A stretch of 64,000 nt of DNA from an uncultured Lachnospiraceae bacterium (lineage in GTDB: Bacteria; Bacillota; Clostridia; Lachnospirales; Lachnospiraceae), in the NCBI GenBank assembly GCA_946623875.1, contig CAMORO010000004.1, positions 2,997-66,996 on the forward strand. Direction: 5' to 3'. Every line of letters begins with the position of its first letter. The stretch's first letter is position 1. Shown in pieces: positions 15,594-21,239 of the stretch. A program made the position numbers and the translations under genes. The notes under the pieces are model-generated. The model saw only the letters and a list, made by a program, of their open reading frames with translations. It was not told where the DNA came from and did no database searches.

Positions 15594-17321
15594 ATGAAAA
15601 GAATGGTAAGCATGATCATTGCAGCCGTATTGGTGGCTGCAATGGTCATTTTAGCGATAAGAATAAAGGATCCCATGTACACGGATGCTTCGGGTTACGT
15701 GGTAGGTGACAACGGTACGGGAAAGACGGGGATGATGCTGAAGAGGAACACATCCACCCTTCACGAACCGGATACGCTCATATTGTGGTATACCGATGAT
15801 TCGCTTACTGATTACATCAATGATACCGCTGTGGCGTACCGTGCCGAAAAAGGAGTACGTGTTAAGCCGGTACTTGTAAGCGGAGTGGAGCTTCTCGAAC
15901 AGATAAACCATGCGTCAATATATGAGGGAACCGAGGAAAACGGAGAGATCCTTACCGCGCCCGATCTGTATATTACGACACATGACAATCTTATGAAGGC
16001 CTATTATGCCGGTCTGGCCTCGGAGATCACCGATCCGCAGAAGATGGTCAATGCCATCAATTATCCGCAGACATCACTGCATGCCGTAAGCTGCAGCGGT
16101 AAATATGTGGGATATCCGCTTTATTACGAAACCAACTTCCTTCTGTATAACAAGACTTATATGGCCAATATAGCCAAGCAGAATATAGGGAGCTCCGACG
16201 GGTTCGACGATATGGAGAATGCGGCGGAAGATACTTCTGATGAGGCTGCCCGGGATAGTGGAGAGGATGACGGGGGCGGATCTGATGCGGTATCCGGGAA
16301 TGATGCCGAAAGGACTGTGACTTCCGGTAACGGAATAAAGGTTGAAAACAGGGCAATATCCGCAAACAGCACAGCTTCTCCGGAAAACGAAGAAGGCCCT
16401 GATGCATCTGATTCTTCCACAGAAGGCGGAATGACAGAGGATGGGCAGGAAGACACCGAACCGATGGGGAATGAGGATATGACAGCAGATCCCGAGGTAC
16501 TTGAAAAGCTTGCCAATATGATCCCGTCTACAATAGATGATATCCTGACCTTCGCCAATAACTATGATGCCCCCGAAGAGGTGGAGGCGATTTTCAAGTG
16601 GGATGTTTCGGATATATTCTACAATTATTTCTTTGTCGGAAATTACATGAACGTAGGCGGCGAAGACGGTGATGACAATTCCTATTTCAATATCTATAAC
16701 CAGCAGGCGGTTGACTGCCTGAAGGTTTACCAGAATATCAATCAGTTTTTCTCGATAGATTCAAAAGAAGTAACCTATGAAGGTATCCTGAATGAATTTA
16801 TTGAGGGGAAGACCGTATTTACGGTTGCAACTACAGATGCCATAGCAAGGATAAAGGAAGCCAGGGAAAAGGGAGAGTTTAATTATGATTACGGTGTCGC
16901 CGTACTTCCCGATATCAGTGCGACTCTTAAAGCCCGCGGTCTTTCTCAAACATCGACGGTGGTTGTTAACGGATATTCATACAATAAGGAAACGGCGAAT
17001 GATTTTGCCGAATATATGTCCTTTACCAAGGCGGCGGATATATATAAGAAGGCCGGAAGGATCTCCTGTCTTAAGAATGTCAACTACGAAGATGCGGAAA
17101 TTCCCAATATCATGCAGGAATATGAGAAATCGGTTCCCCTGCCCAAGATGATCGAGGCAGGTAACTACTGGGTTCAGCTTGAGATAGCGTTCACCAAGGT
17201 GTGGAACGGTGCCGATCCGGATGAAACCCTTAAGGAGCTTAACGATACCATAGGCGAGCAGATAGATGAGCTTGAACACCATGTGCTTACCCAGGAGTCG
17301 ATCAAGGTAGGAATCGACTGA
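15594..17321 (+). CDS. Membrane-anchored MalE-like solute-binding-fold protein with a large acidic insertion
   Basis: N-terminal TM. LILWYTDD...VRVKPV...PDLYITTHDNL and GYPLYYETNFLLYNK parallel the MBP fold. An Asp/Glu/Ser/Gly-rich insertion of about 105 aa is encoded at about 16185-16500. No ABC permease or ATPase is nearby. Confidence 0.6.
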   Translation: MKRMVSMIIAAVLVAAMVILAIRIKDPMYTDASGYVVGDNGTGKTGMMLKRNTSTLHEPDTLILWYTDDSLTDYINDTAVAYRAEKGVRVKPVLVSGVELLEQINHASIYEGTEENGEILTAPDLYITTHDNLMKAYYAGLASEITDPQKMVNAINYPQTSLHAVSCSGKYVGYPLYYETNFLLYNKTYMANIAKQNIGSSDGFDDMENAAEDTSDEAARDSGEDDGGGSDAVSGNDAERTVTSGNGIKVENRAISANSTASPENEEGPDASDSSTEGGMTEDGQEDTEPMGNEDMTADPEVLEKLANMIPSTIDDILTFANNYDAPEEVEAIFKWDVSDIFYNYFFVGNYMNVGGEDGDDNSYFNIYNQQAVDCLKVYQNINQFFSIDSKEVTYEGILNEFIEGKTVFTVATTDAIARIKEAREKGEFNYDYGVAVLPDISATLKARGLSQTSTVVVNGYSYNKETANDFAEYMSFTKAADIYKKAGRISCLKNVNYEDAEIPNIMQEYEKSVPLPKMIEAGNYWVQLEIAFTKVWNGADPDETLKELNDTIGEQIDELEHHVLTQESIKVGID

Positions 17322-19012: not shown

Positions 19013-19093
19013 TTTTCAAAATCTGTTTATAAATACATCAACTTAAGCATTTACTTTAAATCCCATTCATTCTATAATTAGATTATCAATAAC

Positions 19094-19135
19094 AAACGGG
19101 CGTCCAAGGGACGCTCGTTTGAGTGTGTATATTTT
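19094..19135 (+). terminator. Hairpin (12-bp stem) downstream of htrA, probable terminator
   Basis: aaacgggcgtcc / ggacgctcgttt pair (one G-U) around a 3-nt loop, followed by a T-containing tract (gtgtatatttt). Confidence 0.45.
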
Positions 19136-19145
19136 GGAGTTAATT

Positions 19146-21239
19146 ATGTTGGTTAATCAGATTAATCTTACTTCCGAGTTGAGCATACCCAAAGGGAATT
19201 TCGATTTTATCATTGAGGCTACTCACAACGAGCAACTTTATCTTGGATGCCTGAATGCCGAGAAGGAACTCATGATGAATTATGATGAGTGCCTTATTAA
19301 TCTAAGAAAAGCGCTGGAGATGCTCGGAATTGAGCTGGAGAAGTGGTACAGGGCCGAGAAGAACGGCGGTTCTTCCGCTGATGCACTCCGCTCTATCTTT
19401 ATTGATCTCAAGAAGTCGAAGAGTCACGGCGATGAGCGCAAGGAGAGGAGAAGTGTATCAAAGAAGAATTTCTATATAAGACATGTTGTCGATTTCGAGA
19501 AAAAGGATCACGAGGACTTCACAAAGCAGAATATCAAGGAATTCATAGAGGATTATGTCTCCTGTTATCCGTACGAATACCCGGATGAAAAAAAGCGTAT
19601 AAACAGTCTTAAATCGATCGCATACGATCTGTACAACCGTTGCTCAAGACCTCTTAAAGAGAAAGGCAGCGGTACAAAAACCGACTGTGTAAATCTGGTC
19701 AGGCTGTTCCACAGATTATTGTGCATGCTCAACTATGTGCAGGAGCCGTATGACTTTGATCTTACTCCCATGGGTGACTACTATCCCATTCCTTTTGAAT
19801 GCTACGATCAGCTTTCTTTTGTGCGCGGAAACAACATGAAGATGTATGTATCCGAGGACGGCGGAAGTTACTATATGTTCAAACGCAAGGATACAGAATA
19901 TCTCGAAATACTTGATCAGGTTGTATATAAGGACAGGCTTGCCGCGCTGGAGCGGATGGATGGTGAGTGGAAGATACTTGATACTGTTACAGGATACGGA
20001 GATCATGCGGTATCCGAAATTGGTACCCGTGATTACAGACGAAGAGTATATCCCTTCATGGGACGCCCGCGGGCGCTGACACATTCATTTTTGAAAAAGC
20101 TTGCCCATGAAGGCCTGAGGGAGGAAGCGGTACGTTCCATACTGCGGCTTTTTGCGGCATTGCACAGGGCGCAGTCTACAATAGCACATACAAGACTTAC
20201 GCCTGAATGTATCTATATCTGCATGAACAGCGGTATTCCGATGCCTTATGTTGTTGATTTCGAAAATGAGAGAGTGCTTAATTCAAATAACGGAATCCTG
20301 TCAAAGGGGATGCTGGATGATTATTTCGATTCCATGGATCTTCAGAAGTTCCTTGCTCCCGAAGTCAGGAACAGTCCTTCTTTAAGACCGTGGAACACGG
20401 AAGCGGCTGATGTATATTCACTTGGTAAGATAATCAGGTATATTTACGAAGAAGACGAGAAGAAGGTTGCGTCATATGTAGAGAAGCTCACTGTAAAGGA
20501 TCCGGATGAGAGGCCGGGTGTGTTCGAGGCCGCAAGAACTTTTTCGGATGAGGTTGTTTCCTTTGAGCCTACGGTCACTATCGGATTGGATATCCTGATC
20601 GATTTAAGGCTTCTTGTATTCTCCATGTTTAAAGGTTTTGAAGATTACTATATCAATGATTCGATCACCATAGGCAGGATGTACAGTTCGAACGGATCGG
20701 ATATCAAGCTGGATTCGCCGATAGCTTCCAGAACACACGGAAGGTTCTTAAAAACCGATCACGGTTTTGAGTATATAGATATGCTGAGTACCAACGGAAC
20801 CTTTATCAATGGAATCCTCTACGGGGCACAGAGAAACGGCCGGACGGATCCCAAGCCTCTTAAGGCCGGGGATATCCTTAAGATAGATCATCCGGAGTTC
20901 AAGAAGCCTCACAGGAATGCAATTTATATGTTTGTCCTAAATCCTTCCGATCATGAGATGAGCCAGCATGAGATCGAGATATATGAAGGGATGGATATTC
21001 TTATCGGAAGAGACAGGGGAGATATATGTCTTACCAATAACAGGGTAAGTAAAAGGCATGGAAGATTTGTCGTTAAAAAGGGCGTGCTCTTTATCCAGGA
21101 TCTGAACAGTACCAACGGTATTTTCCTGAACGGGAAGAGAGTAAATAAACCAACGGCACTGAAAGAAACGGACTGTGTCAGGATAGAGGATTACATATTT
21201 ATATATGTTGAGGGAAAGATATATTATTATTCGGAATAA
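19146..21239 (+). CDS. Multidomain signalling protein: helical N-domain (DUF4145-like), degenerate protein-kinase fold, and two FHA domains
   Basis: Start ATG 19146 (GGAG at 19136-19139). The listed 19119 TTG lies inside the upstream hairpin. Kinase C-lobe motifs are present (FLAPEV, DVYSLGKII, DPDERP), but the catalytic loop reads HTRLTPEC instead of HRDLKPxN, and DFG is DFE. FHA1: ITIGR..ASRTHGRF....STNGTFING. FHA2: ILIGR..VSKRHGRF....STNGIFLNG. Confidence 0.75.
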   Translation: MLVNQINLTSELSIPKGNFDFIIEATHNEQLYLGCLNAEKELMMNYDECLINLRKALEMLGIELEKWYRAEKNGGSSADALRSIFIDLKKSKSHGDERKERRSVSKKNFYIRHVVDFEKKDHEDFTKQNIKEFIEDYVSCYPYEYPDEKKRINSLKSIAYDLYNRCSRPLKEKGSGTKTDCVNLVRLFHRLLCMLNYVQEPYDFDLTPMGDYYPIPFECYDQLSFVRGNNMKMYVSEDGGSYYMFKRKDTEYLEILDQVVYKDRLAALERMDGEWKILDTVTGYGDHAVSEIGTRDYRRRVYPFMGRPRALTHSFLKKLAHEGLREEAVRSILRLFAALHRAQSTIAHTRLTPECIYICMNSGIPMPYVVDFENERVLNSNNGILSKGMLDDYFDSMDLQKFLAPEVRNSPSLRPWNTEAADVYSLGKIIRYIYEEDEKKVASYVEKLTVKDPDERPGVFEAARTFSDEVVSFEPTVTIGLDILIDLRLLVFSMFKGFEDYYINDSITIGRMYSSNGSDIKLDSPIASRTHGRFLKTDHGFEYIDMLSTNGTFINGILYGAQRNGRTDPKPLKAGDILKIDHPEFKKPHRNAIYMFVLNPSDHEMSQHEIEIYEGMDILIGRDRGDICLTNNRVSKRHGRFVVKKGVLFIQDLNSTNGIFLNGKRVNKPTALKETDCVRIEDYIFIYVEGKIYYYSE

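Follow-up and report, generated by a model that had tools for sequence, protein, structure and literature searches.

The gene described here lies on the forward strand of a 64-kb stretch of DNA from an uncultured ruminant-gut Lachnospiraceae bacterium (contig CAMORO010000004.1); the whole stretch is referred to below as the window. In public records, the sole label of the gene product is 'FHA domain-containing protein'. The product is a soluble cytoplasmic protein without a transmembrane segment, and it is composed of three parts: an all-helical N-terminal domain (N-domain), a degenerate Hanks-type kinase domain, and two FHA domains (Table 1). An AlphaFold2 (AF2) model of the protein has a mean predicted local distance difference test score (pLDDT) of 81.5. 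When the protein was searched at full length against Pfam, NCBIfam, and PADLOC, FHA was the sole significant match. The gene had been predicted earlier from the bare nucleotide sequence (hereafter, the original prediction), and the reading frame given there is real. The longest open reading frame (ORF), 19119–21239, opens at a TTG codon, which was rejected as a merely mechanical ORF start. ATG 19146 is preferred because a GGAG sequence lies 7 nt upstream and because the product from this codon begins with MLVNQI, in register with the MEINQI of all 24 orthologues.

Table 1. Features of the gene and its leader, and two-gene units of related proteins. Positions are those of the window, except where a locus of another genome is named.
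Feature	Position	Strand	Remarks
Promoter-like site TTTACT-17-TATAAT	19050–19078	+	10 of 12 matches; kept in orthologous loci
Leader hairpin AAACGGGCGTCC-AAG-GGACGCTCGTTT	19094–19120	+	Between promoter-like site and Shine-Dalgarno sequence (GGAG, 19136–19139)
Whole gene	19146–21239	+	697 amino acids plus stop; start fixed by alignment with 24 orthologues
N-terminal domain, residues 1–205	19146–19760	+	β-hairpin, then eight-helix bundle
Pseudokinase domain (predicted), residues 226–468	19821–20549	+	Bilobal Hanks-type fold without glycine-rich loop
Catalytic-loop remnant HTRLTPEC, residues 348–355	20187–20210	+	Residue counts in 25 orthologues (see text)
DFG remnant D371-F-E	20256–20264	+	Residue counts in 25 orthologues (see text)
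APE motif A404-P-E406	20355–20363	+	Invariant
Linker motif D468-EVVSFEPT476	20547–20573	+	Invariant, predicted disordered
FHA domain 1, residues 485–599	20598–20942	+	G510, R511, S528, H531, N550 invariant
FHA domain 2, residues 604–697	20955–21236	+	G621, R622, S635, H638, N657 invariant
PP2C-fused protein and kinase, two-gene unit, other Clostridia	L003 5115–8736		
PP2C-fused protein and kinase, two-gene unit, other Clostridia	L004 1482–4876		
PP2C-fused protein and kinase, two-gene unit, other Clostridia	L085 2587–7460		
PP2C-fused protein and kinase, two-gene unit, other Clostridia	L087 2460–7611		

Although Pfam Pkinase (PF00069) is silent on this protein, with no match at E ≤ 10 (gathering threshold 31.7 bits), the kinase similarity of the central domain survives profile searches, fold comparison, and the inspection of relatives. 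A full-length profile compared with PDB sequences was swamped by FHA matches; therefore, the central domain (residues 225–478) was cut out, and a profile of it was built from 15 orthologues. This profile matched 95 PDB chains at E ≤ 10, and the 60 listed were all protein kinases. They included DAPK1 (E 4.6e-4), DAPK2, AAK1, BIKE, twitchin, and WNK3. At the catalytic loop, 'iaHkalnPeciyvC' of the profile is set on IAHFDLKPENIML; further along, 'ivkFe' is set on IIDFG, 'fiAPEi' on FVAPEI, 'ADiySlG' on ADMWSIG, and 'livKDPakRp' on LLVKDPKKRM. This alignment confirms the register that the original prediction had given for the catalytic loop, DFG, APE, and subdomains IX and XI, and the motifs quoted there (H348-T-R-L-T-P-E-C355, D371-F-E, FLA404PE406V, D422VYSLGKII, and DPDER456P) are all present. 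The same register was obtained with hhalign against four active bacterial kinases (probability 96.8%, E 2.5e-10). In Foldseek searches with the AF2 model, the matches at E 1e-5 to 1e-6 were to kinases and pseudokinases, including JAK2 JH2, GCN2, PknA/PknB, and the MLKL pseudokinase, the last with a template modelling score of 0.60, the highest value reached. Pfam Pkinase matches 18 of 22 distant relatives directly, and five reach 31.7–37.1 bits, at or above the gathering score. The protein itself has weak matches to NCBIfam MADS6 (E 2.2e-5, residues 322–466), PADLOC MkoA (E 2e-6), and LegK1 (E 0.022), and these kinase-related matches are confined to the C-lobe. At the fold level, the central domain is assigned by sequence profiles and by the model to the Hanks-type kinase superfamily, whose bilobal fold is marked by helices C, E, and F and by a framework of APE, D-x-W-S-x-G, and the Arg of subdomain XI.

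Residues at the catalytic sites were counted in 25 orthologues, which are 52–60% identical to the protein. The site of the HRD aspartate is occupied by Tyr (8), Trp (5), Arg (3), Ser (3), Ala (2), Gly (1), His (1), Asn (1), and Met (1), never by Asp or Glu, and it is Arg350 in the protein itself. This Asp is missing in all 28 aligned members of the wider family. The catalytic-loop Lys site holds Asn (20), Thr (4), or Ser (1), and the catalytic-loop Asn site holds Cys (22), Tyr (2), or Asn (1). The site of the DFG aspartate (residue 371), which is still Asp in the protein, reads Gly (7), Asp (6), Met (6), Lys (3), Ser (2), and Arg (1) in the orthologues. The GxGxxG motif is absent, the loop reading SEDGGS, and the αC Glu, present in 24 of the 25 orthologues, is Ala in the protein. 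The framework residues APE, D422, and R456 are invariant across the orthologues, and H348 and P353 are likewise invariant or nearly so. The catalytic sites vary widely while the framework stays; therefore, these positions seem free to drift, which goes beyond mere substitution. The C-lobe is approximately 30 residues shorter than that of DAPK1 between helix F and subdomain XI, only two helices follow helix F in the AF2 model, and helix G is probably missing. By every canonical criterion, the kinase domain is predicted to be catalytically dead. The dead kinase fold proposed earlier is borne out by the alignment of the orthologues at HRD and DFG, where the sites are lost and drifting.

Pfam FHA (PF00498) matches the C-terminal part of the protein over two stretches with an E of 1.1e-28 and 99.8 bits, compared with a cut-off of 20.7 bits, and this part is modeled by AF2 as two sandwiches of 10–11 strands. 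All ten FHA signature residues (Gly-Arg of β3/4, Ser-x-x-His of β4/5, and Asn of β6/7) are found in 25 of 25 orthologues. With two Pfam stretches and intact signatures, the earlier claim of two complete FHA domains stands, and its coordinates were right to within approximately 60 nt. The closest sequence matches of these domains are bacterial phosphothreonine readers, namely, FhaB/FipA, OdhI/GarA, EmbR, and Rv1747. In Foldseek comparisons, the two domains can be superposed together on the tandem FHA domains at the N-terminus of EssC (5fwh, E 2.8e-5; 9qks_H, E 1.2e-5). On paper, both FHA domains are predicted to be competent for phosphothreonine binding. The linker between the pseudokinase and FHA domain 1 carries a DEVVxFEPT motif, which is invariant yet modeled at a pLDDT below 50. 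All 25 orthologues have T476, and 22 of them have a hydrophobic residue at the +3 position. The motif around T476 is a candidate phospho-acceptor or docking motif.

Relatives beyond the orthologues were collected by an exhaustive profile search, which gave about two dozen representative proteins; 22 representatives were scored with both domain profiles. A profile search of the clustered protein collection with the mixed family alignment passed the close FHA clade alone through its word filter. In the relatives collected, the N-domain profile (lowest E, 2e-27) and the kinase-domain profile (lowest E, 1e-40) never match one without the other. In eighteen relatives, a PP2C phosphatase takes the place of the FHA pair at the C-terminus, with the PP2C metal-binding motifs intact in sequence, and five are stand-alone forms, including P0026 and WP_077830218.1 of Clostridium beijerinckii, the latter annotated as a protein kinase. 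All of the relatives lack the HRD aspartate, most of them reading H-R-G-L-N-P, and several of the 28 aligned family members have also lost the putative β3 Lys. The PP2C-fused proteins of Clostridia (such as P0028, P0029, P0032, and P0034) are homologous to our protein in the N-domain, where they share the KGNF hairpin and the AEK...LRxAxE helices, and in the kinase-fold domain, which has the same losses (H-R-x-L-x-P, where the first x is not D and the second is N, T, or S; DFG-Asp unconserved; profile E 1e-20 to 1e-40). In contrast to these proteins, our protein ends in FHA-FHA, is encoded upstream of comEA with no kinase gene adjacent, has a shorter C-lobe, and lacks the N-domain His that the relatives keep in a Y..S...H pattern.

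In all five relatives with a readable genomic context, four PP2C-fused forms and the stand-alone form P0026, the next gene encodes a kinase and either overlaps the relative or begins 1–3 nt downstream. Four of these neighbouring kinases, whose DNA was read, have an intact G-loop, VAIK, HRDIKPxN, DFG, and APE and are predicted to be active; they are 39–43% identical to each other. The fifth, after P0026, is recorded solely by a precomputed Pfam Pkinase match. Two of the neighbouring kinases are 910–980 amino acids long, and the one that was translated in full has a transmembrane segment. A maximum likelihood tree built from the shared module recovers a monophyletic FHA clade (100/100) nested within the PP2C-fused forms (93/82 and 84/84), with the stand-alone forms outside (94/97). 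The FHA clade is nested among PP2C-fused relatives; therefore, a phospho-reader appears to have replaced a phospho-eraser. The simplest history suggested by the tree would be a single replacement of PP2C by FHA-FHA in the ancestor of the clade, together with the loss of the kinase linkage.

The surroundings of the stand-alone relatives are varied. In GCA_016648615.1, P0026 has a 788-residue double-AAA+ ATPase upstream and a 282-residue active-looking kinase 1 nt downstream, and this assembly also carries the PP2C-fused relative P0036. On the C. beijerinckii chromosome (L088, 1932–9118), WP_077830218.1 is encoded by the third gene of a cluster and adjoins a resolvase; before it are the genes for a 1190-residue protein with Pkinase and AAA_11/AAA_12 helicase domains and for a 495-residue protein without Pfam matches. 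Such an arrangement resembles a Mokosh-type defence island or mobile island.

The N-domain begins with a β-hairpin that carries an invariant IPKGNFDF motif, and its helices are modeled at a pLDDT of approximately 90. Foldseek with the N-domain model found nothing significant in PDB or BFVD (viral structures), and neither the profile nor the single sequence of the domain gave a significant match to PDB sequences. The original prediction had noted a likeness to DUF4145, which is a HEPN-superfamily domain occurring in defence proteins (PMC3710099, PMC13017515). The N-domain of the protein itself has no match to DUF4145 (PF13643) at E ≤ 10, and the family consensus gives an E of 3. The stand-alone relative P0150 comes close, its 21.3 bits (E 2.9e-4) falling short of the 23.1-bit cut-off; matches to DUF4145 at E ≤ 0.1 were obtained for 2 of 28 family members, and another relative matches AbiH. 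The catalytic site of DUF4145/HEPN domains is R-x7-H (RxxGNxxxH), corresponding to R146 and H154 in RAZR (PMC13017515). At the aligned site, our protein reads Y-N-R-C-S-R-P-L-K, without the catalytic Arg and His, and its clade reads Y-x-R-C-S-x-P, with Thr (9), Lys (8), Ala (2), Ser (2), Asn (2), Arg (1), and His (1) at the His site. The majority of the relatives read Y..S...H, and the R-x7-H motif is retained only in the stand-alone relatives P0150 (LRKMGNMEHH) and P0026 (WRLYGNQCAH). The N-domain is family-specific and is possibly a degenerate DUF4145/HEPN-like domain that has lost the Arg and His. The likeness to DUF4145 therefore finds an echo in the near-threshold match of P0150 only, with no Pfam or fold match for the N-domain of our protein. 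The assignment is a lead rather than a result, and if it is true, the domain would be degenerate in this clade.

The gene is flanked, in order, by argB, argD, a gene for a 575-residue protein, and htrA on one side and by comEA and the genes for an OmpR-type regulator, a histidine kinase, and a GerM protein, followed by comEC, on the other, all on the forward strand. Its placement between htrA and comEA had been noted before and is kept in orthologues. The locus of the orthologue P0017 (59% identity) reads argJ-argB-argD-SBP-htrA-[gene]-comEA-RR-HK-gerM-comEC-holA, and that of P0025 (52% identity) keeps the upstream half of this order, the contig ending at the gene. The G+C content across the gene, 0.41–0.47, is no different from that of the flanks. 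The idea that the gene is an independently acquired unit is ruled out by this synteny and composition. Gene order is conserved at 52–59% identity; therefore, the gene was inherited in place and not acquired. Full-length orthologues were found in 4 of 185,579 species (one genome per species), all of them Lachnospiraceae metagenome-assembled genomes. We regard the gene as a vertically inherited core gene of a small ruminant-gut Lachnospiraceae clade. It is not a mobile or defence element. Within the window, it is an ordinary core gene whose interest lies in its architecture.

We propose that the protein is a non-catalytic phosphothreonine-dependent adaptor in a Hanks-type Ser/Thr network, whose cognate kinase is assumed to be encoded elsewhere in the genome, and we consider this function fairly probable. 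A scaffold role in a Ser/Thr kinase pathway, which had been suggested earlier, gains support from relatives that have the module fused to PP2C and an active kinase encoded alongside. In the proposed mechanism, the module of the N-domain and the pseudokinase would recognise or dock onto the cognate active kinase or its substrates, and the C-terminal module would set the outcome: PP2C would erase the phosphothreonine mark, and the FHA pair would read and hold it. The sites bound by our protein would be phosphothreonines produced by that kinase. Once bound, the protein, which is written here as it may act as a phosphorylation-dependent scaffold, clamp, or competitor that protects or bridges phosphosites. 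The invariant disordered linker ending in ...FEPT476 may serve as an internal phospho-switch of the GarA/OdhI kind.

Several observations weigh against this adaptor function. A scan of all six-frame ORFs of at least 80 amino acids with ad hoc hidden Markov models found no kinase or PP2C gene within the 64-kb window, in agreement with the original prediction. Tree support for placing the FHA clade within the PP2C-fused forms is only moderate. As regards expression, the sequence occurs in sequencing runs from sheep, goat, and other gut samples, all of which are DNA metagenomes. The pseudokinase domain could have a ligand other than a kinase, namely, a nucleotide, a metabolite, or the protein's own FHA pair. 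K246, a candidate β3 Lys (the alignments to active kinases begin at helix C), is invariant in the clade, and residue 373 (20262–20264) at DFG+2 is acidic in 24 of the 25 orthologues (Asp in 13 and Glu in 11), where it may provide a shifted carboxylate; therefore, the domain may bind a nucleotide or a metal. The same two residues, together with the nearly invariant E354 and H348, could be taken as signs of an enzyme that uses ATP, either a kinase that is active though atypical or one of another kind, with catalytic groups supplied from shifted positions as in WNK, CASK, or the SelO-type enzymes, which are built on kinase folds. However, the catalytic-base position is neither acidic nor conserved in the orthologues, where nine different residues from Tyr to Met occupy it, and the DFG-Asp position is Gly, Met, Lys, Ser, or Arg in 19 of 25. 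The absent glycine-rich loop, the Ala in place of the αC Glu, the lack of the HRD aspartate in 28 of 28 aligned family members, and the loss of the putative β3 Lys in several of them also make such an activity very unlikely.

The FHA pair might also be used without phosphorylation, in a scaffold of an envelope or DNA-uptake machine where the pseudokinase and FHA domains bind each other or the subunits of the machine, as in YukC/EssB-EssC. The superposition on the EssC pair (5fwh and 9qks_H) and the retention of the gene between htrA and the comEA...comEC cluster are consistent with this arrangement, and the YukC pseudokinase does bind the YukB FHA pair without phosphorylation (PMC9600267). However, the FHA domains of EssC/YukB lack the phosphothreonine-binding residues (PMC9600267), whereas all ten are invariant here, which argues for real phosphothreonine reading. 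Secretion-system genes are not nearby, and the protein lacks a transmembrane segment. Moreover, comEA-comEC-holA clusters are widespread without this gene, and we think a scaffold of this kind unlikely. A component of anti-phage or anti-plasmid defence, acting as a HEPN/kinase-type sensor or effector with the FHA pair as a regulatory input, is highly improbable. It would draw on the near-threshold DUF4145 match of one stand-alone relative and the AbiH match of another, on the C. beijerinckii stand-alone relative that adjoins a kinase-helicase protein and a resolvase, and on the weak MADS6 and MkoA matches; however, these defence-kinase matches span the generic kinase C-lobe only, and the HEPN-site Arg and His are missing and the kinase is dead, so that effector activity would be gone. 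Defence genes are normally variable in genomic place, whereas the FHA-fused gene stands in the same housekeeping neighbourhood in all of the orthologous loci examined, down to 52% identity. No rival explanation is favoured over the phosphothreonine-dependent adaptor.

The combination of a pseudokinase scaffold with an FHA reader is of a kind already known. In M. tuberculosis, the pseudokinase of MviN and the FHA reader FhaA act downstream of the active Hanks kinase PknB, and the FHA domain of FhaA is recruited to a phosphothreonine beside the MviN pseudokinase domain (PMC12599244). There, the pseudokinase forms the tail of a membrane flippase and the FHA reader is a separate protein, whereas here one soluble polypeptide carries the pseudokinase and two FHA domains; the two cases are likened by the partnership of pseudokinase and FHA and not by kinship of sequence families. 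YukC/EssB and YukB/EssC of type VIIb secretion in Firmicutes likewise bring together a pseudokinase and exactly two consecutive FHA domains, and the tandem fold matches (PMC9600267). However, both partners in that system are membrane proteins of a secretion machine and FHA binding is phosphorylation-independent, whereas the FHA sites of our protein are canonical and type VII secretion genes are not near. The mycobacterial FHA regulators GarA/OdhI and Rv1747 are the top sequence matches of the canonical FHA domains here. GarA/OdhI is switched by an intramolecular phosphothreonine, and in Rv1747, two FHA domains are joined by a phospho-acceptor linker. These regulators have no kinase-fold domain, and the internal phosphosite T476 of our protein is putative.

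If the N-domain is a DUF4145/HEPN derivative, the protein would also resemble RNase L/Ire1, in which a kinase or pseudokinase is joined to a HEPN-type KEN nuclease (PMC3710099). However, the domain order is reversed, R-x7-H is absent from our protein, the HEPN assignment is unproven, and an RNase function is not expected. It is conceivable, though doubtful, that the family is a bacterial counterpart of the RNase L/Ire1 design, in which our protein, with both of its enzymes dead, would be a scaffold that replaces dephosphorylation at the same kinase or competes with it. In such a history, the stand-alone forms in defence-like islands would represent a stage that still carries RxxGNxxxH. The PP2C-fused forms would then have become dedicated phosphatases of the neighbouring receptor kinases. 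In the Lachnospiraceae clade, both ancestral enzymes would be dead, and two FHA readers would have taken the place of the phosphatase.

Few bacterial pseudokinases have been studied, MviN and EssB/YukC foremost among them. A 2025 review and a kinome atlas list seven pseudokinase families, with FHA- or PP2C-fused Firmicutes forms unmentioned (PMC12599244; bioRxiv 10.1101/2025.01.12.632604). The atlas classified only homologues of Pfam Pkinase (bioRxiv 10.1101/2025.01.12.632604), which has no match in our protein. The architecture and the exchange of an eraser for a reader appear to be undescribed in the literature searched. In this family, one conserved pseudokinase module is followed by two alternative C-terminal outputs, phosphothreonine removal by PP2C or binding by FHA-FHA, and the gene for the PP2C form is linked to that of an active receptor kinase. 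It offers a natural experiment on the purpose of a bacterial pseudokinase domain, be it targeting, docking, or allostery, with testable partners available in cultured Clostridium species.

The 575-residue protein is encoded at 15594–17321, two genes upstream of the gene. It has no Pfam match at E ≤ 0.001, and its counterparts in the orthologous loci have weak matches to SBP_bac_8. It stays beside htrA and the gene in all of the loci seen.

Upstream of the gene, the original prediction had described an AT-rich spacer and a terminator. The spacer and a hairpin do exist; however, the hairpin lies on the 3' side of a promoter-like site. It consists of 12 bp, with 19094–19105 pairing with 19109–19120, and it persists, with compensatory changes, in four orthologous loci, which also keep the promoter-like site. 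An Rfam search with the hairpin gave no family. Because it is downstream of the promoter-like site, the hairpin counts as a leader element no less than as a terminator. It could serve in protein binding or stabilisation, in attenuation, or in the termination of htrA, and it may also stop read-through from htrA.

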